NCBI GenBank assembly: GCA_021773435.1
Contig: JAJFKC010000026.1
Coordinates: 40,108-104,107, forward strand
Length of the DNA stretch: 64,000 bases
Source of the DNA: Porticoccaceae bacterium
GTDB taxonomy: Bacteria > Pseudomonadota > Gammaproteobacteria > Pseudomonadales > Porticoccaceae
Reading direction: 5' to 3'
Below are positions 26,630 to 63,764 of this stretch, piece after piece (the stretch's first letter is position 1; each line of letters opens with the position of its first letter). The translations under genes and the position numbers were made by a program. The notes beneath the pieces are model-generated. The model had not been told where the DNA came from and ran no database searches. It was given only the letters and a program-made list of their open reading frames with translations.

Positions 26630-28861
26630 CTAGTGAATATCTTTCCAGTATTCTCGATTCAGCAGCACAACCCAGATAAGCAAAAATGCCAGGAATAGTA
26701 GTACATAGACGCCCGTCTGACGGCTTTCTTCAACCACAGGGTTTGCCAGATAAGACAGGAAGTTGACGAGATCATAGACAGCTTCATCATATTCGACCGG
26801 ACTTAACTCGCCTTTAGTCAACAATTCATAGTTGCCGCAGGGATCGTCATTGAGAGGTTCGCTGGTCAGCGGGTCGACCTTAATGCCGCCATTCGTAGCC
26901 AGGGTTGGGCCATCCGTGCAGCCAGGTAAACCCTGCAAATCAAGCAGCGCGTGGGGCATGCCCACATCTTTAAATACTTTGTTATTGACGCCAATAGGTC
27001 GGCTTTCGTCGGCGTAGAAATTTCGCAAATAAGTATAAACCCACTTCCCGGATCGGGCTCGCGTCACCAACGTTAAGTCTGGTGGTGGCGCACCAAACCA
27101 GTCCTTGCCGGAACGTTCAGACATTGATATCTCCATCAGCCCACCGATTTTTTGGCCGCTAAAGACGAGGTTGTCCATCATCATGCCGTGGGGAATATCT
27201 AAATCGTCGGCTACGCGTTCCCACCGTGAGTAGGCAGCGGCGTGGCACCCCATGCAGTAATTGACAAATATTTTCGCGCCGTTTTGTAGAGATTCCTGGT
27301 CGGTAGCATCGGCCTCAAAGGCATCACAGCTAATGGCGCCACAGTCATGGTTAGCTTCCGACCCAGCCGCTTTGAGAGGCAAAATAATCAGCGCGAGGAC
27401 AATGAACAGGACACTCAACGAGCGCCAGAAACCCATGCCGCCGTCCATGGTAATGCGATCCGGTTCCGGTTTTGATATGTTTCGTTCAACTAACCAGGGC
27501 AGTACCAGAAAAAACAGGCCCAGCACAATAGAGCAGATTCTTACCACTATGGATAGTTCGACGCCCTCTTTGGGCATACCTAAGCCAAAGAAGCCAATGG
27601 CAAAAATCCCGGTGAGTAGATAGCGCAGTATGGATACCCCACCTTTCTTCACCGACCAAACCGGCATGGTTATAAAGAATGCGAAATACATGACCATGGT
27701 TATTTGGGCGAGCAGGGTTCGATCATCAGTCGGCGCCTTAACACCGAGAACTCCGAGGATCACAAAGGATGCAGCAAACAGCAGCAGCATTATTCCAGTA
27801 ATGCGACCTTTATATCGGAACGATTTTTCCTTACTTTTATCCAGCCAGGGCAGGACGAATAAAATAGCTATCGCAGCCGCCATGGCCAGAAAGCCCATGA
27901 ATTTAGCCGTTAATGGGCCAATCTCAAAAGTGACCGCCCGCAACATGGAGTAAAACGGCGTGAAATACCAAACCGGTGCAATATGCTCAGGTGTTTTTAA
28001 TCGATTTGCCTCTTCGAAATTGGCGTACTCAATGAAGTAGCCACCCATCTCTGGCATAAAGAAAATAATGAAGCAGAACACAAACAGGAAAACCGCCACC
28101 GGCACCAGATCGTGCACGGTGTAATACGGATGGAACGGAATGCCATCCAGAGGAATGCCATTTTCATCCTTATCCTTTTTAATTTCGACGCCGTCTGGAT
28201 TATTGGAACCAACTTCGTGCAGGGCCAACAAATGCAACACCACCAAACCCAATAAAACGATGGGTACGGCGACGACATGTAAAGCAAAAAATCGATTCAG
28301 GGTGATGCCAGAGATCAAATAATCACCTCGCACCCATTCGACGATACCTTCGCCGATAACCGGAATTGCGCCGAATAGAGAGATGATCACCTGAGCACCC
28401 CAGTAGGACATTTGTCCCCAGGGCAGCACATAACCGAAGAAACCTTCGGCCATCAGGGCCAGGAAAATAGCCATGCCAAATAGCCAGACCAGCTCACGGG
28501 GTGCTTTGTAAGAGCCATAGAGCAAGCCACGGAACATGTGTAGATATACCACGAGAAAAAAAGCTGACGCCCCGGTGGAGTGCATATAGCGCAGTATCCA
28601 ACCGAAATCTACATCACGCATAATGTATTCGACCGATGCAAATGCACGCTCGGCGGAGGGTTCATAATTCATGGTCAGCCAGATACCGGTGACAAACTGG
28701 TTAACCAACACCAGCAACGACAGAACCCCAAAGAAATACCAGAAGTTAAAGTTCTTCGGCGCGTAATACTTCGCCATGTGAGTATCCCACGCCCGCTGCA
28801 CCGGTAAACGTGCATCAATCCAGCCCCATAGGGCGCCTAACCAGGCCACGATCAACTTCAT
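26630..28861 (-). CDS. petBC: Cytochrome b / cytochrome c1 fusion protein of the bc1 complex (single 743-aa reading frame)
   Basis: The N-terminal ~420 aa are cytochrome b (…FNFWYFFG…, PEWYF-equivalent APVWYFTPFY). Two extra hydrophobic helices follow. Then comes a signal-peptide-like helix (FWRSLSVLFIVLALIILPLKAAG). The rest is a c1 domain with the CMGCH haem motif and a C-terminal anchor (VYVLLFLAFLLIWVVLL). No stop codon separates the parts. Confidence 0.85.
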   Translation of the reverse strand: MKLIVAWLGALWGWIDARLPVQRAWDTHMAKYYAPKNFNFWYFFGVLSLLVLVNQFVTGIWLTMNYEPSAERAFASVEYIMRDVDFGWILRYMHSTGASAFFLVVYLHMFRGLLYGSYKAPRELVWLFGMAIFLALMAEGFFGYVLPWGQMSYWGAQVIISLFGAIPVIGEGIVEWVRGDYLISGITLNRFFALHVVAVPIVLLGLVVLHLLALHEVGSNNPDGVEIKKDKDENGIPLDGIPFHPYYTVHDLVPVAVFLFVFCFIIFFMPEMGGYFIEYANFEEANRLKTPEHIAPVWYFTPFYSMLRAVTFEIGPLTAKFMGFLAMAAAIAILFVLPWLDKSKEKSFRYKGRITGIMLLLFAASFVILGVLGVKAPTDDRTLLAQITMVMYFAFFITMPVWSVKKGGVSILRYLLTGIFAIGFFGLGMPKEGVELSIVVRICSIVLGLFFLVLPWLVERNISKPEPDRITMDGGMGFWRSLSVLFIVLALIILPLKAAGSEANHDCGAISCDAFEADATDQESLQNGAKIFVNYCMGCHAAAYSRWERVADDLDIPHGMMMDNLVFSGQKIGGLMEISMSERSGKDWFGAPPPDLTLVTRARSGKWVYTYLRNFYADESRPIGVNNKVFKDVGMPHALLDLQGLPGCTDGPTLATNGGIKVDPLTSEPLNDDPCGNYELLTKGELSPVEYDEAVYDLVNFLSYLANPVVEESRQTGVYVLLFLAFLLIWVVLLNREYWKDIH

Positions 28862-29460
28862 GATGTTGCCTCCGGATCGATACCGATCACGACAACAGTG
28901 TCACTCTCGTAGTTATGGGGTGGAATTTTCAGATTGGTCGGCGCCGGTACGTCTTTATAAACTCGACCCGCCAGGTCAAATTTAGAGCCATGGCATGGGC
29001 AGAAAAAACCGCCCAACCAGGCCTCGCCACCTAAATCAGCGGCACCCACCTCAGGCCGATACTTTGGTGCACAGCCAAGATGTGTACACAAGCCGAGCAT
29101 AATCAGAAACTCCGCCTTAATAGCACGGGTGACCGGATCAACATATTCAGGTTGATCCGAATCTTCTGACTCAGGGTCTTTCACGGTGTCGCGAAGGTTT
29201 TCAAGAGATTCGAGCGCCTGTGCGGGTCGCCGGACAATATAGACCGGCTGGCCACGCCACTCCTCAATCATCATTGCACCGGGCTCTATTTTGCCAATGT
29301 CGATCTTAACCGGAGCACCTGCTGTCTTTGCCCTGGCACTGGGAAACCAGGAGCCAACAAATGGAATAGCGGCTCCACCAACCCCCACTGCACCGACCGC
29401 ACAGGTCATCCCCGTCAAGAAGCGCCGACGCTTCTGGTTAACCACACCGTCATTGCTCAT
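28858..29460 (-). CDS. petA: Ubiquinol-cytochrome c reductase Rieske iron-sulfur subunit
   Basis: Tat-like RRRFL signal plus CTHLGC and CPCHGS cluster motifs. Overlaps the cytochrome b start by 4 nt. Confidence 0.95.
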   Translation of the reverse strand: MSNDGVVNQKRRRFLTGMTCAVGAVGVGGAAIPFVGSWFPSARAKTAGAPVKIDIGKIEPGAMMIEEWRGQPVYIVRRPAQALESLENLRDTVKDPESEDSDQPEYVDPVTRAIKAEFLIMLGLCTHLGCAPKYRPEVGAADLGGEAWLGGFFCPCHGSKFDLAGRVYKDVPAPTNLKIPPHNYESDTVVVIGIDPEATS

Positions 29461-50925: not shown

Positions 50926-52287
50926 ATGCAGGCGAACATGCAAAAAAATGATGCCCTGTCGTTGTTGTCACTCGTTGACAACGGCCTTGTCGATCCCCAG
51001 GCATTTAATCAGGTCCGTTATGCGCTCAACAACATGACGGCTACGGACATTGCCCATTACATCGAATCATCGCCGATTAAATTACGACGCTTACTTTGGG
51101 AGCTGGTCGATAGCGAAGTAGAGGGCGAGGTTTTCAGCGATCTAAATGAAGAACTACAAAAAGAATTTCTACAGGGCATGACCAGTGAAGCCATGGCGAC
51201 CCTCGTCGCCGGTCTCGACACCGATGATGTCGCCGACGTACTCCAGCAACTGCCTGACCGAATCATTCCCCGCGTTCTCGACGCCATGGACGAGCAGGAC
51301 AGATTGCGGGTTGAAACTGTTCTATCGTATGACGAGGACAGCGCCGGCGGCCTGATGAACACCGACACCATCACGGTGCGACCAGACCTCACCATCGAGG
51401 TGATTTTGCGCTACCTGCGTCGTCATGAAGACATCCCCGAGGTCACTGACAACCTTTTCGTGGTCAACCGCAACGACACATTCCTGGGCACCCTGCCCTT
51501 AACCAGGATTCTCACATCCAGCCCCAATATAACCGTGCGTGAGGTGATGGATACTTCCGTCGATGCTATCTCTGCTTCCGCGTCCGCATCCAGGGTCGCG
51601 CAGATGTTTGAACGCCACGACTGGGTATCAGCGCCAGTGATTAACGACCAGGGCGAACTGCTGGGACGCATAACCATTGATGATGTGGTCGACGTTATTA
51701 TCGAAGATGCCGAGCATTCACTGTTCGGTTTGGTTGGCCTCAGCGACGAAGAACAAACATTCACTTCCGTAAGACGCACCGCGCCACGCCGAGCGGTCTG
51801 GCTGGGTATAAATTTATGTACCGCCGTGCTCGCGTCAGTCGTCATTAATCTATTCGAGGGCACGCTCGATAAGGTGGTAGCCCTGGCAATTCTGATGCCA
51901 ATTGTAGCCAGCATGGGCGGAGTTGCAGGTAGTCAGACATTGACCGTGGTGATTCGCGGCATGACCCTCGGCCAAGTTAGTCGCAGTAATTTGCGCTGGC
52001 TGTTAAACAAAGAGTTTCTGTCCGGCACCTTTAACGCCCTGCTTTGGGCGACTGTAATTGGCGCGCTGGCATCCTGGTGGTTTGACGACCTGATGATCGG
52101 CTACATCATTGCAGCGGCCATGGTGATCAACCTGGTTACCGCTGCGCTCGCCGGGTCATTACTGCCAGTCATTTTAAAAGCTATTAATATTGATCCCGCG
52201 TTGGCTGGCGGCGTCATGTTGACGACCATTACTGACGTGGTCGGATTTTTCTCCTTTTTGGGACTGGCAACCATTTTTTATATTTGA
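50926..52287 (+). CDS. mgtE: Magnesium transporter MgtE
   Basis: N-domain, tandem CBS domains, and a 5-TM C-terminus with GNAGSQ-like GGVAGSQT and TITDVVGF motifs. Confidence 0.9.
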   Translation: MQANMQKNDALSLLSLVDNGLVDPQAFNQVRYALNNMTATDIAHYIESSPIKLRRLLWELVDSEVEGEVFSDLNEELQKEFLQGMTSEAMATLVAGLDTDDVADVLQQLPDRIIPRVLDAMDEQDRLRVETVLSYDEDSAGGLMNTDTITVRPDLTIEVILRYLRRHEDIPEVTDNLFVVNRNDTFLGTLPLTRILTSSPNITVREVMDTSVDAISASASASRVAQMFERHDWVSAPVINDQGELLGRITIDDVVDVIIEDAEHSLFGLVGLSDEEQTFTSVRRTAPRRAVWLGINLCTAVLASVVINLFEGTLDKVVALAILMPIVASMGGVAGSQTLTVVIRGMTLGQVSRSNLRWLLNKEFLSGTFNALLWATVIGALASWWFDDLMIGYIIAAAMVINLVTAALAGSLLPVILKAINIDPALAGGVMLTTITDVVGFFSFLGLATIFYI

Positions 52288-52314
52288 TGAAGCAAATGTC
52301 CTTCTGGTCAAAGC

Positions 52315-52875
52315 ATGAATGATCATCCTTCCCAATCCGCTAATGAGTCGCCCTCAGACGACAATGCGCCGGTCAGTAAGTCGGCTCGCAAACGGGAAAT
52401 GGCTGCCCTGCAAACGCTCGGCGAGAGCCTACTGGATTTATCCGCTGATCGCTTCGCAAAACTACCTCTGTCAAGCGGTTTGCGCGAAGCGCTCAATCTG
52501 GCAAAGAGCCTCAAACAGAGGGAGGCCAGGCGGCGACAATTACAATATGTTGGCAAGCTTATGCGCGCTGAAAACTATGGGGAGATTTCTGCGGCGCTGA
52601 CTCGTTTCGAGGATGACAACCGTTTATTCCGACAACGTTTCAAACGTCTCGAAAAAATTCGTGATGAACTTATCGAAGATAGTGGCGAGGCACTGGAAGC
52701 ATTACTCAATAGCCATCCTCAGCTCGACCGACAGCATCTGCGTCAATTAATACGCCAGGCCAAAAAAGCATCGCTGGGTGAAGATGACGCGCAAAACACA
52801 GTTGCGACGGACAAAGCCACCGCTAAGCGGCGAAAACTATTTGAGTATTTGCGGGAAACCATCGTGCTCGGCTAG
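52315..52875 (+). CDS. yjgA: Ribosome-associated protein YjgA/DarP (DUF615)
   Basis: SKSARKREMAALQ.LGE.L..L…REARRRQLQYVGKLMR. Confidence 0.8.
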   Translation: MNDHPSQSANESPSDDNAPVSKSARKREMAALQTLGESLLDLSADRFAKLPLSSGLREALNLAKSLKQREARRRQLQYVGKLMRAENYGEISAALTRFEDDNRLFRQRFKRLEKIRDELIEDSGEALEALLNSHPQLDRQHLRQLIRQAKKASLGEDDAQNTVATDKATAKRRKLFEYLRETIVLG

Positions 52876-52887
52876 GCCGCGCCAGAA

Positions 52888-54264
52888 TTATTTGCCCAGC
52901 CGTCGAATAGCCGCCCGAGTCAGATATTTATCGTAAAGATCATCGGTATTCACCTTGGTTTTATGGCCACCGGAAATCTGTTTGACCTGCTCTAATCTGG
53001 TCATACGATTGGTTTGAATATTATGGGCATGAACCCGCGTCCACGATGCGTAGGGGTGTTTGCCATCATAGAAAGTGTTGGTGCCATCGGTATAAAGGGA
53101 ACCCGCGCCATCGAAAGAGCGAAACATTTCCCCACGTCGATCAAAAGAGACCATAGAAATAGGTGCCAATGTCCGGGCATCAAACCACACGCGCTTCTTG
53201 CTGATGGGGGCACGGGGGAATTTGACAGGCTCCGCATCGACGACAATCGCTTCAGGCACTAACTCCACATCCATATCCCAAAAGGTATGGCCGTGGGGGC
53301 CGCCGTGGGTGGTGTGCTCCCAGTTCTCATGGGCCGGTTTCCAGCTGCGGGAAACCGCTGCCAGGGCAGGACCCCGACCAACAATTTTATAATTCCCCCA
53401 GGTCAGGAAGGGATCCCCCGCCGTCCAGGCATCAGATAAATATAACGACGAGCCAGGAATTAAAGGCTCGAAACGCTGATTACTGGGGAATCGCCGCACA
53501 CGCTTAAAAGCCGGTAAATATCCGGTCAAATCTGGGAACTGGCGTTGATCATAGTGCCAAACATTAAGGAAAGAAGTACCGCTAATATCATTCGGTTTAA
53601 CAAAAAATACCGATTGATAGCGCAGCTTGTCTTCATGGTCAGTCCAGTAAGGTTTCGGCTCAAGCACCAATCGACCCATTGCTGTTAGCTCAGCCCAGCA
53701 CAGCTCATAGTTATATTCTATTTTTCCGCTCGGCCCGACATCGGTTTCTTTAATCGCATAAAAAGACGCATCGTGGCGACCCCAACTAAGGGTGATACCA
53801 GCAAATACTTCGAGCGCTGTTTTGGGATCAGGAAAGGGATTGCCGCCTATCCATGGCTTCCCTTCGCGGGTCACCACATTGCCATCGGCATCAAACATTG
53901 CCTGGCCCTGATTGCGCAAAGTCGCCTCGTTATATTCCCAGGGGCTAAGCTGCATGATGTCACTGGTGGTATCAATTATGCCCATTTGCCGCCCCATCTG
54001 TGCCACCTGGGTGTAGCGAATCGGGTCTAGCAGGTCTTTGACGTGCTCAACATTGTCGGCATTAATCATATCGCCGGTTTTGACCTTGCCACCGGTATAA
54101 GCCTCGATAGACATCAGTTCATCCGGGTAGACCCCATCGATACTGCCGGTTTTGGCAATCGCAGGCCACAGCGGAGCGAGCACGCCAGTAGCCAGTACAC
54201 CCCTGCTCATCTGCATCATGAAATGCCGGCGGCTGAAGTCAGGATCGTACTTACGAATTCTCAT
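52888..54264 (-). CDS. DUF1329 family protein (LolA-like fold family) with a twin-arginine signal
   Basis: SRRHFMM followed by a hydrophobic stretch and AIAK. DUF1329-type segments are GGNPFPDPKTALEV and AFKRVRRFPSNQRFEP. Starts 18 nt after the preceding gene. Confidence 0.7.
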   Translation of the reverse strand: MRIRKYDPDFSRRHFMMQMSRGVLATGVLAPLWPAIAKTGSIDGVYPDELMSIEAYTGGKVKTGDMINADNVEHVKDLLDPIRYTQVAQMGRQMGIIDTTSDIMQLSPWEYNEATLRNQGQAMFDADGNVVTREGKPWIGGNPFPDPKTALEVFAGITLSWGRHDASFYAIKETDVGPSGKIEYNYELCWAELTAMGRLVLEPKPYWTDHEDKLRYQSVFFVKPNDISGTSFLNVWHYDQRQFPDLTGYLPAFKRVRRFPSNQRFEPLIPGSSLYLSDAWTAGDPFLTWGNYKIVGRGPALAAVSRSWKPAHENWEHTTHGGPHGHTFWDMDVELVPEAIVVDAEPVKFPRAPISKKRVWFDARTLAPISMVSFDRRGEMFRSFDGAGSLYTDGTNTFYDGKHPYASWTRVHAHNIQTNRMTRLEQVKQISGGHKTKVNTDDLYDKYLTRAAIRRLGK

Positions 54265-54282
54265 GATAATGTCTCAGTTAAA

Positions 54283-56592
54283 TTACCCGCAACCAAACTC
54301 TTCTCGGCGCTGATTAAGGCGCGCCTTCTCATCAGTAGACCCAAGATGCTGATAGCGTCGAGCATACGTAATGGCGGCACACAGGTCTTCCTCTCTGTCT
54401 TCTAGTTGAGTTAATAGTTCAATTCGGTGGCCCATGGCCTCTCGCCACCGCGGTGCACCGTCTGGCTGTGCACCGGTAATTTTTGCCCAGGCACGTTCCG
54501 CGGTAAACAGATCAGCGGTGGCTTCAGCGGTCTCGGCATATGCGGTCCAGGCATCGCCTGAATTGGGAAACTCCTGGACCATAGCTTTAGCCATGTCGAA
54601 CGCTCCACCCCCATTACCCACCTTAATAGCAGCGCGAATTTGTAACAAACGCAGCTGCCGCTGATCGTGGGTTTGGCCGACCAGCGCTGGATAAAATGCT
54701 TCTGTCAGGGGCACTAACTGGGCAAACTCCCCGCGTTTTTCCTTGGCGACTAAAAACCGGTATACCTCCCGCTGCGTCGCGCTATCCATACCTGGCTTAT
54801 CGCCATTTTTTACTGTCAGACCAGCTATATAAGAGCGCAACTGGGCCTGGTCGATCTGATCCAGAACACGCAGTTTTGACCACATCAATACTTGTTTAAC
54901 ATTGGCATCCAACAACAATTTTTGATCAGCCTTTGCCTGGGCGGCTTTCCCCTGGGAGTAAATGGCATCGATACCCTTAAGCACGCCCGGCAGATCCCGC
55001 CCCAGCACCGTCCTCATCTGCAAACTTACCGCACGCACCCAGAGTTTTTTCTGAACATGTCTCGGCAATTCTTTTAAGCTGGTTAATACTTCTTCGGCCT
55101 TGCGCTGTTGTTTTCCTATTGCGCCATTTTCGATGGCACCATTAAATTCATTGATCGCCCTTTTAAGCTGGGAAAAAGCAATGGAGCCTTTGAGCTTCGA
55201 ATCCTTTTTCGCTAGCCGCAGGTGCTTCTTTGCGCGGTCAGGATTAAAACTCAGCTGCCCAAGCAGTAAATGCGCAGAAGCAATATCCGGGTCATCGCCA
55301 TTTTTGGTCAGGAAATACTCCGCCGCGTTCAGCGCCTGTGTTCGATTTCTGTTGCTATTTTTCTGCTCGTAAAGCGACTGCGCGACCAGGAACGAAAATT
55401 TAGGCAAGGCCTTGACCACAGCCTGGGGAAGATCACCTTCGCCACGAAGTTTTTCAGCAACATTATAAGCATCGTGAAACTGGCCTATTTTTAACAGCGC
55501 TACGGCGTAGTGATATTGTAGGGTGCGCAAATTGATCAGCAAATCCAGGCCGCCATTACGCGTAAACTCCCGATACTTGAGCACGGTTGTATCGTATTGT
55601 TGGTAGGCGTAGGCGAACTCCGTATCGACGTAGAAGGAAAATACCCCGATATCCTGGCCGACAATTTCATCGCGATAGGACATGATTCGATTAACTAAAC
55701 TACTATTAAGATAGCCCTCTGCAATCAGGCGTTTTAGACGTTCTCCAGCCGCGATTTTGCCAGTCTGCGTATCGCGATGCTGTTGCAGTAGCGCAAAAGC
55801 CTCTTCTAGATAAACATTGGCCAGGCTCGGTGTCAGCGGTTCTGCCTTAATGGCCTGAGTTGGCCGAATCTCACCGCGGCGAATGGCCAGCACCGTTAAT
55901 TCGGCGTCGGCTATTTTACGCACCGGATTATCGGGATCACTCACCAGGGCCTGAACAAGGCGGCTAAAGCGTTTCTCTGCCAGAGCCTGTTCGCCGCGAG
56001 CCGCCGCCACATAGCCCATACCCAGCCAGCTGCCGTAGACGATACCGGGATAAAGAATACGTACTGAAGATGCCTGAAAACCACTCTCGGCTTTATTCAG
56101 CCAGCTTATTTGGTCGCGCTCCCCCTCCTTGCTGTGCGCAATCCCCAACATGGCCCAGGCCTGCCAATAGCTGAATGCCGACAAGGCGTAATTAATATCG
56201 TGCCAAACATCTGAGCGATACAGTTTTTCAAGACTGGCTTCATTCTCGTTGGTAGTGCTTTCCAGGGCCCGCACCTTATCTCGGCATCGCGCTCTCAAAC
56301 CATCGGCATTATTTATCAGCTGCTCATAATCTTTTTTGCTGCCGCCTATTTCTCGCGTTTTCGATACCAGGTTGCCGTAGCTATCGGCGATCAAAACGAA
56401 ATCACCCGCGCTCAATGAGTTGATGTCCTGGTCTGACAAAATCATTAATCGCGTCGCGAGCTTGTTGACCTCGGCAATTGCCGATACGGCAAGCGTTTGT
56501 TGTTTAAATTCGGTGAGCGAGATCGCGCCATAAACCGATGCACTGGAAAGTGTTGCAAGCAAGCATAAACTCAGTGTCAGAGTACGTAACAT
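54283..56592 (-). CDS. Large secreted helical-repeat (TPR-like) protein of unknown function
   Basis: 769 aa with a Sec signal (MLRTLTLSLCLLATLSSASVYGA). The rest is dominated by Ala/Leu/Tyr-rich helix-turn-helix periodicity. I saw no catalytic motif. Confidence 0.6.
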   Translation of the reverse strand: MLRTLTLSLCLLATLSSASVYGAISLTEFKQQTLAVSAIAEVNKLATRLMILSDQDINSLSAGDFVLIADSYGNLVSKTREIGGSKKDYEQLINNADGLRARCRDKVRALESTTNENEASLEKLYRSDVWHDINYALSAFSYWQAWAMLGIAHSKEGERDQISWLNKAESGFQASSVRILYPGIVYGSWLGMGYVAAARGEQALAEKRFSRLVQALVSDPDNPVRKIADAELTVLAIRRGEIRPTQAIKAEPLTPSLANVYLEEAFALLQQHRDTQTGKIAAGERLKRLIAEGYLNSSLVNRIMSYRDEIVGQDIGVFSFYVDTEFAYAYQQYDTTVLKYREFTRNGGLDLLINLRTLQYHYAVALLKIGQFHDAYNVAEKLRGEGDLPQAVVKALPKFSFLVAQSLYEQKNSNRNRTQALNAAEYFLTKNGDDPDIASAHLLLGQLSFNPDRAKKHLRLAKKDSKLKGSIAFSQLKRAINEFNGAIENGAIGKQQRKAEEVLTSLKELPRHVQKKLWVRAVSLQMRTVLGRDLPGVLKGIDAIYSQGKAAQAKADQKLLLDANVKQVLMWSKLRVLDQIDQAQLRSYIAGLTVKNGDKPGMDSATQREVYRFLVAKEKRGEFAQLVPLTEAFYPALVGQTHDQRQLRLLQIRAAIKVGNGGGAFDMAKAMVQEFPNSGDAWTAYAETAEATADLFTAERAWAKITGAQPDGAPRWREAMGHRIELLTQLEDREEDLCAAITYARRYQHLGSTDEKARLNQRREEFGCG

Positions 56593-56594
56593 GG

Positions 56595-57710
56595 CTACAA
56601 ACCCTCCAGCAACAGCGCCATTTCACGGGCAAACTGACCACCCATAATTAGCGACATTAAATGTCGGGTTATTTTCACATCGCCATCCATAGTCGAGGCG
56701 ATACCGCCGCCTGCTTCGGCGAGCAACTGAAAATCGAGCATGGGTTTATCGGAATAAAACGCCCGATTAACAGGTCGGCCCAGCATCGATTCCAGCAAGG
56801 CCGGATTCGCATCGCGACTCACATCTAAAGCTGAAATTTGCCCGCCGTCCTGAGCGAATGCTTTGCTGATGGATAACAAATTAGAAATTGCATTTTTGTG
56901 GGGAGGTGCATCGCCCAGCACAATAATGATCTTTCTGGCACCCAGTCGCCAGGCACTCTGATCAATACCCACCTGGACACCATCGAAAACCGCCTCCTGG
57001 TGACTACCACCACCCTCAGCCATCAATCCACCGAGAAAACGCACGAGCTTCGTTAAGCTAAAAGTCAGCGTTTGTAATTTGGTGACGTAACCCGGCTCAC
57101 CGTAATCGCGATAAGCCACCACGCCAAAACGAGACACTGGCACCAGCAGACGTATGGCATCGACGATATCGACAATTCGGCTATTGACCTCGGTCAGCAC
57201 CCAGTCCATCGAGCCTGTCGTATCAACGACAAAAACAACGTCAAGGCCGGTTTCGCGCAGGCCCTGAACATAGGCGGCAAATCGATTCGCCGAATCACTG
57301 AGGCCGGTGCCGATACCCGTGCCATAACCAGCCACGCCCTCACCATCGGTAACCGGAGTATTGGACAGCAGCGGCGCGGCGAAACCCCCGGAGCTATGCC
57401 CACCTGCTGCGGCCTCCATCGCCAGATTGACATCCGGTGGGGGTGGAGCTAATGCAGAGGTCGGCACCAACACCGGCGGCGGTTCAAACTCGATACTTTC
57501 TTCAAACACTAGCTCTTCTTTTTCCGGTAGTTCAGTCAGATCAAGCATGACCTCAATGGCCTGAGTCGAGTCGTCGTTTTTGGCAAGAGGGTCGAGCATC
57601 GAACGGGAGGCCTGCCAGGATAGTATTAGATGTATCACTAGAGACAGACACAGCAGGCCAATCCAGAGGCTGGCTGACTTAAGCCATTTGAGCAAGGGAA
57701 GCATGTTCAA
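56595..57710 (-). CDS. Membrane-anchored protein: N-terminal TM helix, acidic/proline-rich spacer, C-terminal von Willebrand factor A domain
   Basis: TM helix SLWIGLLCLSLVIHLIL. Spacer …EFEPPPVLVPTSALAPPPPD…. VWA core VVFVVDTTGSMDW (MIDAS DxTxS variant), …GGGSHQEAV…, IIIVLGDAPPH. Confidence 0.7.
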   Translation of the reverse strand: MNMLPLLKWLKSASLWIGLLCLSLVIHLILSWQASRSMLDPLAKNDDSTQAIEVMLDLTELPEKEELVFEESIEFEPPPVLVPTSALAPPPPDVNLAMEAAAGGHSSGGFAAPLLSNTPVTDGEGVAGYGTGIGTGLSDSANRFAAYVQGLRETGLDVVFVVDTTGSMDWVLTEVNSRIVDIVDAIRLLVPVSRFGVVAYRDYGEPGYVTKLQTLTFSLTKLVRFLGGLMAEGGGSHQEAVFDGVQVGIDQSAWRLGARKIIIVLGDAPPHKNAISNLLSISKAFAQDGGQISALDVSRDANPALLESMLGRPVNRAFYSDKPMLDFQLLAEAGGGIASTMDGDVKITRHLMSLIMGGQFAREMALLLEGL

Positions 57711-57731
57711 AGAGGATAATCCGATACGTAA

Positions 57732-58148
57732 TCAGAGTACGTTGTCATTATTCAAGGTAATCAACGCGACTCTGGACACCTGAAGGAATTTAAAGTCTTC
57801 GAGAATCGGGATAAAATAAAGAGCGGGTGTGCCGCCATCGGCACGCAAGCGCACTTTGCTGGGAATAGCCAAACCATCAGCTCGAAAGCCATCGGCCCAC
57901 TCAGGCACACTGGTTTTATCGCCCTGCCATAACAGCACACCTTCCCGTGTTAATTCCAGCTCAACCATCCCCGCCTCAGTCAGGGTCTCGCTAAGCGATA
58001 AGGGCGGCGATATATTCTGGTTAAAACTTTCAGAAAAGGTACCGACCACGAGAAAAAATAGCAGCAGCAAAAAAGTCATATTTATCACCGGCAGCATATT
58101 GCCCTCTGCGTGCGTGCCAACCTGTCTGTCTTCCTGTAAATTAAACAT
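57732..58148 (-). CDS. ExbD/TolR-like protein, divergent paralog (TM Asp replaced by Asn)
   Basis: The start MFNLQ… at 58148 is preferred over the track start at 58286, which would overlap the upstream gene. TM segment MLPVINMTFLLLLFFLVV aligns with the ExbD (T/L)P(F/L)IDV(M/L) motif, with N in place of D. Confidence 0.65.
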   Translation of the reverse strand: MFNLQEDRQVGTHAEGNMLPVINMTFLLLLFFLVVGTFSESFNQNISPPLSLSETLTEAGMVELELTREGVLLWQGDKTSVPEWADGFRADGLAIPSKVRLRADGGTPALYFIPILEDFKFLQVSRVALITLNNDNVL

Positions 58149-58227
58149 AATTATTAGTCTACTATTATCCTGAATTGTCCGGTTCTGTTTTACTGGTTTA
58201 AGTTTTACTTGTTGAAGAATTACGGAT

Positions 58228-58650
58228 TCAAGACTTATCTGCCCCTGACTTATTCTTGTCCAGCGGCAAGATCTGAATTTTCTCAAGATGATGAGTTTTT
58301 AATTGATCCATGGCGCTCACCAACAACTGTAAGGGTGCAATATCATGCACTTCAATAACCACCGCCGTTTCGGGGACAAACTGCTTACCGTCCAGGTAGA
58401 CACCTAGATCCGACAGAGCAATAGCTTCGCCCTGGATCCACAACTTGCCATTTTCAAACAGCTGCAAACTTAACAATTCGCCAGCACTGGAGCTTTGCTC
58501 TTTCTTTTCGGGCACATTAAAGCCCAGCTCGCGGAATTCGCTAAAACTGGTTTCCAGAATAAAAAACACCAGCAGGATAAAAACCAGATCGGCCAGCGGC
58601 GTAAGGCTGATACGCCGCAGTTTCTTTTTATGATGAGATTGCAGTTGCAC
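58228..58650 (-). CDS. exbD: Biopolymer transport protein ExbD/TolR
   Basis: ISLTPLADLVFILLVFFIL contains the conserved TM Asp. 140 aa. Confidence 0.85.
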   Translation of the reverse strand: MQLQSHHKKKLRRISLTPLADLVFILLVFFILETSFSEFRELGFNVPEKKEQSSSAGELLSLQLFENGKLWIQGEAIALSDLGVYLDGKQFVPETAVVIEVHDIAPLQLLVSAMDQLKTHHLEKIQILPLDKNKSGADKS

Positions 58651-58687
58651 GATGACAGACTATAAACGTCGTTAGCTAAAAACGCCG

Positions 58688-59305
58688 CTAATTAGCGGCT
58701 GATAAGTTTGCCGTAAACAGGCGTGTTAGCTGGTCTTCCATATTGCGGCGAATATTGGTGGCGCGGCTTTCGAGCATCGCGTGAATCATGGCAAAGGGGA
58801 TAGCAACGGTTAAGCCAACAGCTGTGGTTAACAGGGCTTCCCAGATACCGCCCGCAAGCACCCCCGTGTCAGCACCACCGCCCTCATTGGCAAGACTGAA
58901 AAACACATCGATCATGCCCAATACGGTACCCAGCAAACCCAACATTGGCGACAGGTAGGCGATAAGTTCAATGAAGGAGTTGAGGCCGTTTACCCGGGTC
59001 ACAATTTGCTGGCCCTGGCGGGTCAACTCTTCGCGGATTTTGTCTTCACCATAAGATTTGTCGCTGAGCCAGGAAACACCGTTGCGAAGCAAATCACTAA
59101 ACGGCGATTTATCACCCTCCAACGCCGCTAAGGCGGACTCTGCTTGACCATTGACCCAGTGGCTAAGAGCCTTTTCGGCCTGCTGTTGCTTACCTTTGGA
59201 ATACGCTCGGTACTGCAGCACTTTGTACAAAACAATCGCTAAGCCAACCACAGACAATGCAATGAGAACGAGCACCACTGGCCCGCCCAACTCTAATAAT
59301 TCCAT
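58688..59305 (-). CDS. exbB: MotA/TolQ/ExbB proton-channel protein
   Basis: 3-TM layout with [14 protein letters not shown] and [15 protein letters not shown]. Confidence 0.9.
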
Positions 59306-59496
59306 AGTGTTCCCTGTATCTTATTAATTGTTAATTTTAATTATTGTGCTAACTGCCCGAAGGCTTTTTGTGAAAAAATTTTTAGTGGGCAGCTTGGCGA
59401 CTAAACTACGCGTGTCGCGTAAACTAATAATACACGTTTTTAAAGTCAGTTCCCTCACATGCGTGATGCTAACCATAGCTCCTTCAGCGATTGCGA

Positions 59497-59946
59497 TCAG
59501 CGCCGATGTGCAGGCGGTGGCAAGCCCGCCGCTTCAGCGGGTAGATCGCGTTTATATTTGGGTAGAGCCGGATCGAGACACACCCAGGGCTGGGCAAAAT
59601 CCAGCCAGGCATCTAGCTCGGGGCTGAATTGTTCAGGATGATCCAGCGTGACTGCGTAGACCGGACGCATGCCTTTTACGCGAGTCGTGTGAGCAAAAAT
59701 CGTTGTGCCACACTGCCCGCAAAAAGCCCTGCTGACCTCGTGACCACTATCACCTTTACTGACATATTCGCTGTACGACCCACTAATGTTAAAAGCCCTG
59801 GTCGGCACTAGCATAACCGGCGCATAGGCTCCGCCCGTGGCGTGCTGACAAGAGCGGCAGTGGCAGTTTGCCTGGCCAAAAGGTTGCTGATCTACTTCAT
59901 AGCGAACGCTGCCGCAAAAACAGCCGCCAGTGATGGGTAGTTGCAT
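59497..59946 (-). CDS. GFA family protein (glutathione-dependent formaldehyde-activating / CENP-V-like Zn protein)
   Basis: GGCFCGSVRYEV…CHCRSCQ…FCGQCG cysteine pattern. Confidence 0.85.
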   Translation of the reverse strand: MQLPITGGCFCGSVRYEVDQQPFGQANCHCRSCQHATGGAYAPVMLVPTRAFNISGSYSEYVSKGDSGHEVSRAFCGQCGTTIFAHTTRVKGMRPVYAVTLDHPEQFSPELDAWLDFAQPWVCLDPALPKYKRDLPAEAAGLPPPAHRR

Positions 59947-60003
59947 TGCATTCCCCTCTATAAGGTCTGTCGGACACTATACCTTTTCGCAAAAAAAGGA
60001 CGG

Positions 60004-60882
60004 TTACAAATAGGTTGAAAGCCTGCCTTCAATTAAATCTTTTTGAGCCGACAAGGTCTCTATCAAAAAATCTCTACACACACGCACTCTGGCTGTGGTG
60101 CGCAGGTCTGCATGAATTAGTACCCACAGGCCCCATTCACTGGGATCGATATCCAGGTTAACCCTGAGCAAATCTGACTGAGTGTCGGCGGTCCAACAGG
60201 GCATTCGGGCCATTCCTAAACCTTCAGACACAGCCTGGCGCATGGATATTGCATCATCAACCCGCAGCGCAACTCGTGCATCAGGAAAGTGCTTTAGAAC
60301 CCAGTCAGGTAACTGACTGTCATCGCGCCAGAGTATTAATTCATGGCGCTGCAGACCCCTCGCCTGATATTTTTCTGAGGTGTAGATTCCTCGACCAAAA
60401 TCTGCCACTTTTTTGCCAACCAGGTGCTCTGGTGGTTTCGGTGTGCCTCTGATGGCGATATCCGCCTCTCTGGCACCCAGATCTCTCACCTCGGTGGTAA
60501 TAAACAACTCCAGATCAATGTCAGGATATTGATCGCAGAAGGTCTGCAATTGAGGCATCAACAGGGTATTGACCATGCCATGATAAGCCGTGATACACAA
60601 TTTACCCTGTAGTCGAGCATCACGACCGAATAACTCGCGCTCCAGAACACGGGTGCGTTCCTCAATTTCCAGCGCATATTGATAAATATTCTCAGCCGCC
60701 TGGGTCATCACATAACCGCTGGGCAGTCGCTCAAATAAACGCACAGCATGGATCTTTTCATATGCGTTTATGCGGCGCGCCACCGTGGAGTGATTAACGC
60801 CTAATTCAGCAGCAGCGCCAGAGATTGTCCCATTTTTGGCCACAGACAAAAAATATCGCAAATCATCCCAGTCATTCATCAA
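60004..60882 (-). CDS. LysR family transcriptional regulator
   Basis: WDDLRYFLSVAKNGTISGAAAELGVNHSTVARRI HTH, then a substrate-binding domain. Confidence 0.9.
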   Translation of the reverse strand: MMNDWDDLRYFLSVAKNGTISGAAAELGVNHSTVARRINAYEKIHAVRLFERLPSGYVMTQAAENIYQYALEIEERTRVLERELFGRDARLQGKLCITAYHGMVNTLLMPQLQTFCDQYPDIDLELFITTEVRDLGAREADIAIRGTPKPPEHLVGKKVADFGRGIYTSEKYQARGLQRHELILWRDDSQLPDWVLKHFPDARVALRVDDAISMRQAVSEGLGMARMPCWTADTQSDLLRVNLDIDPSEWGLWVLIHADLRTTARVRVCRDFLIETLSAQKDLIEGRLSTYL

Positions 60883-61026
60883 TGCATTATTGCACAGTTA
60901 ATTTGCAATAACTGATAATTTACACACAGCAGCTTCACGAGTAACCTTGTCGACAATTCCAAAGCAGTTAACCAAAATTTTACCCACCCGCTGCTTCAGG
61001 AAGCTAAGTCAACTAGAAGTGAGGAA

Positions 61027-61164
61027 ATGGATATGAATTCAATTGCTAAAGATAATAACGCTATCGCCAGTTACGGCCTGAGCACCGTTTTGGGCGGCGC
61101 TGCCTTAGTCTTCGCACTATATGCGCTTACGACGATCACTATCAGCCAGCCGGTTTTGTTTTAG
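61027..61164 (+). CDS. Candidate small (45-aa) single-TM membrane protein
   Basis: Below the track cutoff. My translation is MDMNSIAKDNNAIASYGLSTVLGGAALVFALYALTTITISQPVLF. The ATG directly follows GAGGAA. Divergent from the LysR gene. No homology evidence is available. Confidence 0.35.
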   Translation: MDMNSIAKDNNAIASYGLSTVLGGAALVFALYALTTITISQPVLF

Positions 61165-61225
61165 TACGCGACAACTGCCAGATTATTATTTGTTCATTCT
61201 GGTAGTTTTCTGCTTAACCTGACCG

Positions 61226-61308
61226 CAACCTTCAACCTTCAACCTTCAACCTTCAACCTTCAACCTTCAACCTTCAACCTTCAACCTTCAACCTTCAACC
61301 TTCAACCT
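61226..61308. repeat. Perfect heptanucleotide microsatellite, (CAACCTT) about 12 copies
   Basis: Read directly across 61226-61308 with no interruption. Intergenic. Confidence 0.95.
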
Positions 61309-61457
61309 AAATGGCTATCTATTCAGGACAATCTACTTGGGGCTAGCTAATAAAATAGGCCGCCTAAACTACAATCCTTACGGTCTGGCCTTATCTGGCT
61401 GTTTCTGGTTCTTACAAACGCGCCTACTATCAACCAACTAGCGATTTATGCTGGGTG

Positions 61458-62624
61458 CTAGCTGGGCAATCTCAACACTGCCTTAGCGAGAATATTACGC
61501 TGAATTTCATTACTACCACCATAGATAGTGGTGGGTCGTGACGCGATAAATTCGCCAGCAGCGCGCACTACTCCGTCAACGGTATCGATACCATCCTGAA
61601 TACCACCATGCTCACTGGCAGCTTCCATCATTAGCTCGGTAACCCGTTGCTGGGTTTCGGTGTTCCAGACTTTCAACATGGACACTTCCGGGCCAATATT
61701 GCCGCCGCGTTTAAGCACTTCAACAAAACGCTTATAGGCCGCAAACAGATCTTCAATATCCAATTGCAGGCGCGTATAACGCTCGACAAATAGTGGGTCT
61801 TTAAACAGACCCACAGATTTCGCCATCGACTTTAGCCTCGACATAGCGAGAATGGCGAACTTGGGGCTGCCGATAAATATGCGCTCGTGGCCTAACAGTG
61901 CCTTGGCAATTGTCCAGCCGTTGTTTTCGCCACCCACCACACTAGCGACCGGTACTTTGACGTCATCAAAAAACACTTCGGCGAACTCGTCGTGCATACC
62001 CAGGTTGACGATTGGTCGCACGGTGATGCCCGGCGTATCGAGAGGCACCAGCAAAAACGTTATGCCCTCCTGTTTTTTGCCGTCTTTATTGGTGCGAACC
62101 AACATGAAAATCATGTTGGCATCCATGGCTAGAGTGGTCCAGGTTTTATGGCCATTGACGATGTAGTGATCGCCATCACGCACTGCCGAGGTCTGCAGGG
62201 ACGCCAGATCGGAGCCCGAACCCGGTTCAGAATAGCCCTGGCACCATATATTCTCACCCGCTAATATCTTCGGCAGGTAGTGTTCCTTTTGCTCCTGAGA
62301 ACCATGCTGAATTAATAAGGGTCCAACCATGGTAATGCCCATATCCGGCGTTCTGCCCACACCATAGGTCTCGCCGACGTCCATGAAAATTAGCAATTTG
62401 TTGGCATCAAGGCCCATGCCGCCATATTCCGCAGGCCAGGCCGGGGTTAACCAGCCTTTTTTCGCCAGGGTTAAATACCAGTCACCAACCTGGTCCCAAT
62501 GCATGCGGTTGGGCGGAAAGCGCAGCTCGTCGGGGTAGTTTTCGACGTACCAGTCATGAACCATGGCACGAAATTCGTCATCTTCCATCGCGTTGTATTC
62601 ATTGCTTGCTTGCAAATTCGTCAT
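61458..62624 (-). CDS. Acyl-CoA dehydrogenase
   Basis: 388 aa with an ACAD pattern (…CQGYSEPGSGSDLAS…, …GGSNEIQRNILAK…). Confidence 0.9.
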   Translation of the reverse strand: MTNLQASNEYNAMEDDEFRAMVHDWYVENYPDELRFPPNRMHWDQVGDWYLTLAKKGWLTPAWPAEYGGMGLDANKLLIFMDVGETYGVGRTPDMGITMVGPLLIQHGSQEQKEHYLPKILAGENIWCQGYSEPGSGSDLASLQTSAVRDGDHYIVNGHKTWTTLAMDANMIFMLVRTNKDGKKQEGITFLLVPLDTPGITVRPIVNLGMHDEFAEVFFDDVKVPVASVVGGENNGWTIAKALLGHERIFIGSPKFAILAMSRLKSMAKSVGLFKDPLFVERYTRLQLDIEDLFAAYKRFVEVLKRGGNIGPEVSMLKVWNTETQQRVTELMMEAASEHGGIQDGIDTVDGVVRAAGEFIASRPTTIYGGSNEIQRNILAKAVLRLPS

Positions 62625-62636
62625 TGGTTGTCGCCC

Positions 62637-63764
62637 TTACAAAGTCAGTTCGGCATAGCGGGCACGGTGCGCCGCAGCATTGCCCAACCAGGAAGCCAGA
62701 TACATCGCCTTTTTGAAATACAGACCAATATTGGCCTCATCTGTATAACCGATACCCCCATGTAGCTGGATGGCGCTTTTGGTGATTTGCAGCGCAGCAT
62801 CGGAACACCGGGCCTTGACCTGACTGGCCGCTACGGCTCGCCCTTCGGCTGAGACCTCGCCGTCGAACAGGCCAATGGTTTGCAGCACCACAGAACGGGA
62901 AATTTCTGACAGAATAAACAGATCAACCATCTTATGTTGAAGGGCCTGAAAGCTGCCGATGGGCTTATCAAACTGAACACGCTGAGTCGTGTAGTCAACT
63001 GTGATTTCAAGAGCACGGGTCATGACACCCAGCAATTCAGCACTGGCGGCAACACGGCCTGTATCAAGGGCCGCTGCAAGAATCTGTTCGGCCAGCGCGA
63101 CGCTAGCGACCTTATCCCCGACCGCCACTTGATCAAAACTCAGCTGACCATAAAAGCCACCATCGACCCGCTGCTCGTAATCAATACTTAAACCAGTCGC
63201 ATCTTTATTGACCAGATACAATTCAGTACCCTCGGCGCTAGCCGCCGAGACGATAAAATCATCAGCGCCACCGGCATCGGGCACAAATATTTTCTTACCG
63301 CTTAGCTTGCCATCGACCACACTGACCTGTTCCGCCTTAACGCTCATGCTGCCACGGGCCTCCTGCCAGGCCAGTGCTGGTTTCCATTCGCCAGCCACCA
63401 GGGCGGGCAAACGATCTTTTTTGACAGCCTCGTTATCACCGTTCACCAACACGGTCGCGGCAATCACAGCAGTAGCCACAAAGGGCGCAGGCACCAGACC
63501 TTTGCCCAGCTGGATCAGAACCGTATGAAGATCATCGAAACCCAGGCCGATACCACCAAACTGCTCGGGGATCAAAAACCCCAGCCAACCCAGCTCAGCC
63601 ATTTCCTGCCAGGTGTTCTGGTCAAAACCCGGCTGCACGAAACGACTGGCTCGGGCTTTTTTTAATTCTTCATCCTCGCCGATGAAGGCAACAGCGCTAT
63701 CCTGAATCAGCACCTGCTGCTCACTCAGGACATCAATACGTGACTGCAAACTAATATCTTCCAC
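62637..63764 (-). CDS. Acyl-CoA dehydrogenase family protein (partner subunit type)
   Basis: 375 aa with an ACAD fold (…QFDKPIGSFQALQHK…, …QLHGGIGYTDE…). Lies 12 nt upstream of the second ACAD gene. Confidence 0.85.
   Translation of the reverse strand: MEDISLQSRIDVLSEQQVLIQDSAVAFIGEDEELKKARASRFVQPGFDQNTWQEMAELGWLGFLIPEQFGGIGLGFDDLHTVLIQLGKGLVPAPFVATAVIAATVLVNGDNEAVKKDRLPALVAGEWKPALAWQEARGSMSVKAEQVSVVDGKLSGKKIFVPDAGGADDFIVSAASAEGTELYLVNKDATGLSIDYEQRVDGGFYGQLSFDQVAVGDKVASVALAEQILAAALDTGRVAASAELLGVMTRALEITVDYTTQRVQFDKPIGSFQALQHKMVDLFILSEISRSVVLQTIGLFDGEVSAEGRAVAASQVKARCSDAALQITKSAIQLHGGIGYTDEANIGLYFKKAMYLASWLGNAAAHRARYAELTL

Follow-up and report, generated by a model that had tools for sequence, protein, structure and literature searches.

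Organization of the gene cluster

The DNA analysed here, referred to as the window, is a 64-kb stretch (64,000 nucleotides) of contig JAJFKC010000026.1 of a Porticoccaceae bacterium. Six of its minus-strand genes encode an ExbB/TolQ-like protein (ExbB), two ExbD/TolR-like paralogues (ExbD1 and ExbD2), a membrane-anchored protein with a von Willebrand factor A domain (VWA protein), a large secreted helical solenoid and a DUF1329 protein (Table 1). This work concerns the machine that the six proteins may form, a device of the Ton/Tol type driven by the proton motive force (PMF) in which the VWA protein would take the place of TonB or TolA. The six open reading frames (ORFs) were recomputed from the window and found at the coordinates of the initial annotation, separated, from the ExbB gene to the DUF1329 gene, by 37, 79, 21, 2 and 18 nt, as it had said. 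The mechanical ORF of ExbD2 opens at a TTG at position 58286, and the ATG at 58148 is the start used by its homologues. A promoter and terminator scan of positions 52200-60100 gave counts no higher than those of shuffled controls, being neutral on the existence of a single transcript, and an Rfam scan of the whole window returned no RNA element. Since these scans added nothing, co-transcription of the six genes is what we infer from their spacing and conserved order. An identical metagenome contig of 9.3 kb bears the same genes, the proteins are also encoded on a 116-kb NCBI contig of a metagenome-assembled genome (MAG), and the closest relatives of the locus are Porticoccaceae MAGs.

Table 1. 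Features of the six-gene cluster and its candidate regulator, in window coordinates
Feature	Position	Strand	Basis
ExbB/TolQ-like proton-channel subunit, 205 aa, three transmembrane (TM) helices	58688-59305	-	Pfam MotA_ExbB 1.4e-28
ExbD1, ExbD/TolR-like subunit with TM aspartate D21	58228-58650	-	Pfam ExbD 2.2e-18
ExbD2, paralogous ExbD/TolR-like subunit, Asn23 replacing the TM aspartate	57732-58148	-	Pfam ExbD 1.8e-13
VWA protein, 371 aa	56595-57710	-	Pfam VWA 8e-10, VWA_4 7e-10
VWA protein residues 4-39, TonB/TolA-type N-terminal membrane helix, S23-x-x-x-H27	57594-57701	-	AlphaFold2 (AF2), alignment
VWA protein residues 40-135, disordered Pro-rich periplasmic linker	57306-57593	-	AF2, low confidence
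VWA protein residues 136-371 (and stop), VWA domain with metal ion-dependent adhesion site (MIDAS; D163-x-T165-x-S167, S236, D267)	56595-57305	-	Pfam, AF2, Foldseek
Secreted all-alpha TPR-like solenoid, 769 aa	54283-56592	-	AF2; weak TPR_14/TPR_19
DUF1329 (LolA-like) protein, 458 aa, twin-arginine signal SRRHFM	52888-54264	-	Pfam DUF1329 1.6e-57, LolA_like 8.5e-8
LysR-type regulator, candidate local regulator (context only)	60004-60882	-	Pfam HTH_1 and LysR_substrate

The stator

The nearest solved structures to ExbB are those of E. coli ExbB (5sv0, 9.6e-12) and TolQ (8odt). Its motifs GLLGTV.GM and GGIWEAL.TT..GL..AIP, located in TM2 and TM3, are near-invariant among 67 homologues; we take them to match the pore-lining Thr and Glu positions of E. 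coli ExbB/TolQ. The three proteins are best regarded as members of the superfamily, and not as orthologues of ExbBD or TolQR, because their NCBIfam scores fall far under the equivalog cut-offs: ExbB reaches 79.9 bits with the TolQ model (cut-off 221) and 56.5 bits with the ExbB model (cut-off 206.2), and the ExbD models score at most 17.6 bits on ExbD1 and ExbD2 against cut-offs of at least 123. The Zorya anti-phage system was considered and rejected, PADLOC giving only 20-bit ZorA-family matches to ExbB and none for the other five proteins.

The two ExbD paralogues differ at the position of the proton-carrying TM aspartate. The TM aspartate of ExbD1 is present in 62 of 62 homologues, whereas ExbD2 carries an asparagine at the aligned position in 61 of 62. 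Therefore, only one of the two ExbDs in the predicted 5:2 motor would be protonatable. In a distant locus (L087) both ExbDs retain the aspartate. The initial annotation had described a standard PMF stator and did not notice this replacement; Pfam upholds the assignment of an ExbB and two ExbD paralogues, but the word standard does not fit the ExbD2 asparagine. The Asp/Asn pair is a natural experiment on the number of protonatable sites that a 5:2 motor needs.

The VWA protein

The AF2 model of the VWA protein, built on 88 homologues, has a mean predicted local distance difference test (pLDDT) score of 79.9. The N-terminal helix is confident (block-mean pLDDT 84-98), the linker is of low confidence (mostly 35-64) and residues 136-370 form a confident alpha/beta domain, mostly above 90. 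Residues S23 and H27 of the helix, within the sequence LSLVIHLIL, are invariant in the 88 homologues, and SxxxH is present in 79 of the 81 copies encoded at the loci described below, the two exceptions being cut off at contig ends; the TonB-like anchor initially proposed is thus real. The linker keeps the motifs L-x-F-E-E and PPPPDV, with L67, F69, P77, P78, L81 and P90-92 near-invariant, and its approximately 95 residues, if extended, would be enough to span the periplasm. In the C-terminal domain, the MIDAS residues D163, T165, S167 and D267 are invariant in the same homologues, the fifth position, 236, being S, D or T. A Foldseek search of this domain against the PDB gave VWA domains only, with BatB (3ibs, 7e-9) at the top and integrin beta-I, ANTXR2 and Rpn10 among the others. 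Pfam, AF2 and Foldseek agree on a VWA/MIDAS domain after the Pro-rich spacer. A cryptic TonB C-terminal fold was excluded: Pfam gives no TonB_C match, AF2 and Foldseek make residues 136-370 a VWA fold, and neither a TonB nor a TolA C-terminal domain is among the Foldseek matches, no residues being left for one.

An exhaustive search with a VWA profile yielded 356 representatives at E<=1e-30, and a hydrophobic SxxxH helix precedes the VWA domain in 87 of the top 150, which supports the existence of a large class of putative transducers. Some relatives place a cytoplasmic FHA domain before an 'LRRAPWF..S...H' membrane helix and the VWA domain (e.g. L091:1-1728, representative P0338), and many VWA representatives of 500-700 aa are among these FHA-bearing forms. 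These would represent a variant transducer architecture, in which phospho-signalling may serve as an input.

Such a class has been predicted in silico under the name of vWA force transducers (Williams-Jones et al., Mol Biol Evol 2025, PMC12204202). The published transducers have a TM helix with an SHLS motif, a disordered Pro-rich linker and a C-terminal vWA domain; they adjoin a tolQ-like gene, two different tolR-like genes and a TPR gene, and they occur in Proteobacteria, PVC bacteria, Bacteroidetes and Rhodothermaeota. In AlphaFold3 models the transducer helix docks on the motor. According to the authors, the class is of unknown function and without a reported deletion phenotype; they speculate on gliding (PMC12204202). 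From the features described above, the architecture of the cluster and its membership in this class are, in our judgement, highly probable.

The solenoid and the DUF1329 protein

The 769-aa protein carries a Sec-type signal, and AF2 predicts it as an unbroken solenoid of 39 helices without strands (pLDDT 93.1), in agreement with the helical-repeat nature first ascribed to it. Pfam recognizes only weak TPR_14/TPR_19 repeats at residues 647-720, most of the length being without a family. Foldseek returned only generic TPR scaffolds (Ctr9, Ski3, IFT-A, TTC7) at a TM-score of about 0.2, uninformative on function, and the 111 homologues are, every one, unnamed or 'hypothetical'. Residues C738 and C768 are invariant, a pair that fits a periplasmic disulfide. 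Residues 103-130 contain an invariant acidic segment (E111, E118, E122, then L-Y-R-S..W), which is a candidate ligand of the MIDAS.

The last protein of the cluster matches DUF1329 (PF07044) over its full length, with LolA_like as a sub-match, and the RR motif of its signal is present in 85 of 86 related DUF1329 proteins; both its LolA-like nature and its twin-arginine signal had been rightly recognized at the outset. DUF1329 copies encoded after the solenoid gene form a clade apart from the copies encoded between MMPL and BNR genes (see below). At 90% identity, the DUF1329 protein falls in a cluster of 21 members, the VWA protein in one of two and the solenoid in one of a single member. DUF1329 appears to evolve much more slowly than its VWA and TPR partners.

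Gene neighbourhoods in relatives

By means of the VWA alignment, 80 species-representative loci were collected and annotated with phmmer and with hidden Markov models built from the matches; each count given here covers the loci where the feature is assessable. The solenoid gene directly follows the VWA gene in 71/73 loci, a DUF1329 gene lies downstream in 61/66 and the motor genes lie upstream of the VWA gene in 58/69. The order motor-VWA-TPR-DUF1329 is thus held across dozens of species, and the survey of gene order that the initial annotation had called for came out in its favour. What that annotation had missed is the strongest functional clue, namely, that in relatives the cluster stands directly beside genes for DUF1302, BNR and RND/MMPL proteins. 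A DUF1302 outer-membrane barrel gene is placed directly upstream of the motor in 38/55 loci, accompanied upstream by an MMPL-type RND gene (26/44) and by a BNR/Ycf48-like propeller gene (27/44). Independent contigs with Pfam annotation give the same picture.

The loci fall into four classes. Class A, the clade of the window, has the six genes only. In class B the order is MMPL-DUF1329-BNR-DUF1302-ExbB-ExbD-ExbD-VWA-TPR-DUF1329. In class C (e.g. L051, L054, L056, L060, L082 and L083) it is MMPL-BNR-DUF1302-ExbB-ExbD-ExbD-VWA-TPR-(CobW)-DUF1329; the sole DUF1329 gene follows the TPR gene, so that the motor-VWA-TPR block sits exactly between DUF1302 and DUF1329, two genes that adjoin in the classical four-gene set. 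Class D (L025, L030-L032, L036, L042, L043, L065, L074, L076, L078) has the order DUF1302-VWA-TPR-DUF1329, with no ExbB or ExbD gene between. The VWA proteins of class D keep the SxxxH helix without motor genes, which suggests that they use a motor encoded elsewhere.

Two further features of these loci were observed. A gene for a CobW/COG0523-type GTPase (Pfam cobW 6e-47 and CobW_C; L056:13414-14397) lies between the TPR and DUF1329 genes in 15/66 loci, and such a gene is also present in L061, L062, L064, L065, L066, L074, L078 and L079. This places a metallochaperone-like gene beside that of a MIDAS protein, a pattern that may simply be inherited within one clade. DUF1302 proteins of class C have 730-890 aa, versus the usual 610-650 or so (e.g. 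L060:5555-8017, L057:980-3466, L074:6943-9615), the extra length being a Gly/Ala/Asn-rich insertion of 170-200 residues directly after the first beta-strand. A plug or TonB-box-like domain was rejected on account of this position, which is not N-terminal, and the insertion would be a surface loop.

In a distant subfamily, locus L087 has the order BNR-MMPL-DUF1302-HEAT-x-VWA-ExbB-ExbD-ExbD-TPR-like, another arrangement with the same partners, and a second distant locus (P0262) reads VWA-TPR-x-x-ExbB-ExbD-ExbD-sigma54 activator-x-MMPL. Of three further distant VWA representatives, P0256 and P0281 lie on contigs too short to show their context, and P0338 lies at a contig end.

Scanning of 32 window ORFs (the six of the cluster, six flanking and 20 other large ones; small ORFs were not all covered) revealed no TonB_C domain, TonB-dependent receptor, TolB, Pal, MoxR or DUF58, as anticipated by the initial annotation. 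This result and the motor-less loci bear on another reading, according to which ExbB and the ExbDs energise a conventional TonB encoded elsewhere, the VWA, TPR and DUF1329 proteins being a Bat-like scaffold adjacent by chance. That class D dispenses with motor genes, and that BatB of B. thetaiotaomicron ranks first among the structural matches of the VWA domain, would fit such an idea. We consider it very improbable, given that the SxxxH helix, the motor-binding signature of TonB and TolA, is invariant in the VWA protein even at motor-less loci, that the motor genes abut the VWA gene in most loci and also occur in the rearranged distant locus, that ExbB and the ExbDs score far under the equivalog cut-offs, and that neither MoxR nor DUF58 occurs among the window ORFs scanned, in the loci of four fully annotated relatives or among the annotated neighbours in L001-L005.

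For the history of the window's clade, a neighbour-joining tree was computed with two distant VWA transducers as outgroup. Of its two basal branches, one is made up by class C; the class-A loci group as a single derived clade inside class B, and the class-D arrangement has at least three origins. Upstream, class-A loci have acyl-CoA dehydrogenase, LysR and GFA genes where relatives have DUF1302; downstream, if the contig reaches far enough, they have a DarP gene in common with their class-B and class-D relatives. The shared downstream gene, the replaced upstream genes and the nested position of class A indicate that the DUF1302 barrel gene was probably lost from this position in the window's lineage. 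Within the clade (window 59497-63764 and L006-L024), two or three acyl-CoA dehydrogenase genes lie upstream in 15/16 loci and a LysR gene in 14/16, often with a GFA-family gene as well.

Recurring neighbours related to transport and lipid catabolism do not point to a module that powers surface adhesion or gliding in the manner of the Agl-Glt machinery with its VWA adhesin CglB. This function was tentatively suggested for the class (PMC12204202), and VWA adhesins are reported to have a role in Myxococcus gliding (PMC9946355). No Glt or Cgl-type genes lie nearby, and the modelled VWA domain, tethered to the inner membrane by some 95 residues, would therefore be periplasmic and not exposed at the surface. 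Gliding is accordingly the least probable of the functions considered here.

Elsewhere in the window, a 743-aa ORF at 26630-28861 (minus strand) joins the N- and C-terminal domains of cytochrome b with a cytochrome c1 domain; a Rieske gene adjoins it at 28858-29460, and the ORF looks like a fused b-c1 subunit.

Proposed mechanism

The genes next to the cluster in relatives correspond to a set studied elsewhere. Cofitness has been observed in Shewanella, Kangiella and Pseudomonas among DUF1302, DUF1329, a BNR propeller and a COG1033 RND protein; export of a cell-wall component is the function that Price et al. proposed for the set, its phenotypes being pleiotropic (bioRxiv 10.1101/072470). P. 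putida requires the four genes to grow on Tween 20 and butyl stearate (bioRxiv 10.1101/2020.07.04.188060). AlphaFold-Multimer predicts a DUF1302-DUF1329 complex with an interface predicted TM-score (ipTM) of 0.84 (PMC13499233), and AlphaFold-predicted contacts link DUF1329, BNR and RND proteins (PMC10866462).

Taking these data together with the gene linkage, we propose that the six genes encode a Ton/Tol-like, PMF-driven force-transduction module that most likely moves hydrophobic cargo via a DUF1302/DUF1329 complex, a reading to which we assign a probability of about 0.6. In the model, an ExbB pentamer would house an ExbD1/ExbD2 heterodimer with the protonatable aspartate in ExbD1 only. The VWA protein would replace TonB/TolA, its SxxxH membrane helix docking on the stator and its Pro-rich linker crossing the periplasm. 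The MIDAS-bearing VWA domain would then hold on to a partner in the periplasm or the outer membrane, much like an integrin I-domain that grips its ligand under load. The TPR solenoid and the Tat-exported LolA-like DUF1329 protein would be the fixed partners of the VWA protein, the solenoid serving as an adaptor. Because the module is embedded in the DUF1302/DUF1329/BNR/RND set in relatives, the force would most likely act on the DUF1302-DUF1329 outer-membrane complex, and the pull would gate or drive the transfer or hand-over of a hydrophobic or lipidic cargo. The core of this proposal, in which a PMF stator acts on periplasmic partners by way of a VWA protein with a TonB-like anchor and TonB is absent, had already been put forward in the initial annotation and is supported by the present data. 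What the data show are the domains, the conserved motifs and the gene linkage; docking, the transmission of force, the ligand, the target, the cargo and the direction are what we infer from them. A functional link of the cluster to the DUF1302/DUF1329/BNR/RND proteins seems probable; a hydrophobic nature of the cargo is about an even chance.

The same machine could work outwards. As an exporter or a device for outer-membrane lipid homeostasis, the RND/MMPL, BNR, DUF1329 and DUF1302 proteins would move a lipid or cell-wall component to the exterior, and the motor-VWA arm would act in a Tol-Pal-like manner, holding or remodelling the outer-membrane end or freeing cargo from DUF1329. COG1033/MMPL-type RND proteins are exporters, ExbB obtains its best NCBIfam score with TolQ, and the pleiotropic phenotypes and the export proposal of the earlier fitness study agree with this arrangement. 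However, the RND pump has a PMF coupling of its own, the fitness defects appear with fatty esters as carbon source (bioRxiv 10.1101/2020.07.04.188060), the cluster has acyl-CoA dehydrogenase genes as neighbours in the clade of the window, and neither TolB nor Pal is encoded by the window ORFs scanned. We hold this exporter, the main rival of our reading, to be rather unlikely. Among the cases with a hydrophobic cargo, import would be marginally more probable than export, and uptake for beta-oxidation is only slightly favoured.

Several points weigh against the proposed module and its cargo. The ligand of the VWA domain could be the TPR protein, DUF1329, DUF1302 or another protein. The ExbD2 asparagine could mean an altered or regulatory stator and not a normal motor. 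Transport could run in either direction, since RND/MMPL pumps are normally exporters and export of a cell-wall component has been proposed for the set. No DUF1302, BNR or MMPL-type RND gene was found within the 64-kb window or in the 7 kb beyond its end, so that the link to these three rests on the relatives; the only RND gene found in the window is of AcrB type, and the genes beyond its end are housekeeping ones (FUR, BamE, RnfH, SNF, SmpB). Finally, a large part of the synteny goes back to common descent in a single gammaproteobacterial family, so that the locus counts are not independent events. Independent support for the linkage comes from the rearranged L087 locus, the repeated loss of the motor and the split DUF1302/DUF1329 pair.

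To our knowledge, Ton and Tol are the only understood routes by which inner-membrane energy reaches the outer membrane in Gram-negative bacteria. The vWA transducers would be a third one, and the comparative data supply a concrete target for them, the DUF1302/DUF1329/BNR/RND set, which has fitness phenotypes on fatty esters in Pseudomonas and lacks a mechanism. If the link is true, it would explain energised transport of hydrophobic substrates across the outer membrane in some Gammaproteobacteria of sea and soil, among them the hydrocarbon-associated Porticoccaceae and Halieaceae, and it would make of a MIDAS adhesion domain a force-bearing coupling in bacteria. In its fullest form, this third PMF-energised outer-membrane system would have an asymmetric 5:2 stator, a MIDAS-bearing vWA 'hand' pulling on a porin-like DUF1302 barrel capped by the LolA-like DUF1329 protein, a TPR adaptor and a hydrophobic cargo handled with BNR and RND/MMPL proteins. 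We advance this form tentatively, at somewhat less than even odds; it would give a function both to the vWA force transducers predicted in 2025 and to the dark families DUF1302 and DUF1329. The value of the finding is that two groups of 'dark' genes come together in a single hypothesis open to test.

Comparison with known systems

The Bat operon (MoxR-DUF58-BatA-BatB-BatC-BatD-BatE) also combines membrane-anchored VWA proteins with TPR proteins, and BatB is the closest structural match found. The cluster differs from it in lacking the MoxR ATPase and DUF58, in the use of a single SxxxH helix instead of Bat-type anchors and in its linkage to ExbB/ExbD. With Tol-Pal (TolQ-TolR-TolA-TolB-Pal-CpoB) it shares a channel subunit nearest to TolQ in NCBIfam, an SxxxH transducer helix and an operon-encoded TPR protein, comparable in this respect to CpoB. 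However, TolB, Pal and TolA domain III are missing, and the TPR protein is a 769-aa solenoid and not CpoB-like.

The likeness to the Ton system comprises a channel of the MotA/ExbB family with subunits of the ExbD family, a transducer whose SxxxH anchor helix is followed by a Pro-rich spacer, and a presumed transfer of PMF energy to the outer membrane. In contrast to Ton, the cluster has neither a TonB C-terminal domain nor a 22-strand plug-containing receptor, and it has two ExbD paralogues, one of them without the aspartate. On the outer-membrane side its candidate partner is DUF1302, a barrel of 18 strands, together with a LolA-like DUF1329 protein. The adjacent position is occupied by DUF1302 in relatives, and no TonB-dependent receptor is encoded in the 32 window ORFs scanned.

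With the four-gene set (Price et al. 2016/2018; Thompson et al. 2020; Foldy 2024; ECLIPSE 2026) the cluster has in common its last gene, a DUF1329 member, and in relatives the two are contiguous, although the window itself is without DUF1302, BNR and MMPL-type RND genes. For the examples studied in Shewanella, Pseudomonas and Kangiella, the descriptions mention no motor, VWA or TPR genes dedicated to the set. Within the literature library searched, no paper combines DUF1329 with ExbD, and DUF1302 and ExbB occur together only in an unrelated study of the MetJ regulon. An identity of AupA and AupB, of alkane uptake in Marinobacter, with DUF1302 and DUF1329 was considered and dropped, since the paper presents AupA as a FadL-family protein and AupB as of unknown function, with no DUF or Pfam family.

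The closest match is the class of vWA force transducers (PMC12204202). The cluster has the SHLS-type TM helix with its histidine, the Pro-rich disordered linker of about 100 residues and the C-terminal vWA domain, and its ExbB, ExbD1 (Asp) and ExbD2 (Asn) genes, directly upstream, stand for the tolQ-like and the two tolR-like neighbours. A TPR gene co-occurs in both, here placed after the vWA gene, in an order unlike that of the PVC examples of the paper. All features described for the class that can be read from sequence are present. The initial annotation could match the arrangement to no characterised system. This stands insofar as no phenotype has been reported for the class and, hence, no characterised system corresponds to it, but the novelty was overstated: the arrangement fits the class predicted in 2025, is not unprecedented, and the mechanism then suggested is in essence that of the published prediction. 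Within the class, the cluster represents a gammaproteobacterial variant. A DUF1329 gene in the conserved block and the tie of the relatives to DUF1302, BNR and RND are absent from the published description, and it is here that the cluster contributes something new: DUF1329 as a conserved partner, a place of the block within the DUF1302/BNR/RND set, the recurrence of forms without a motor and the Asp/Asn pair of ExbDs.

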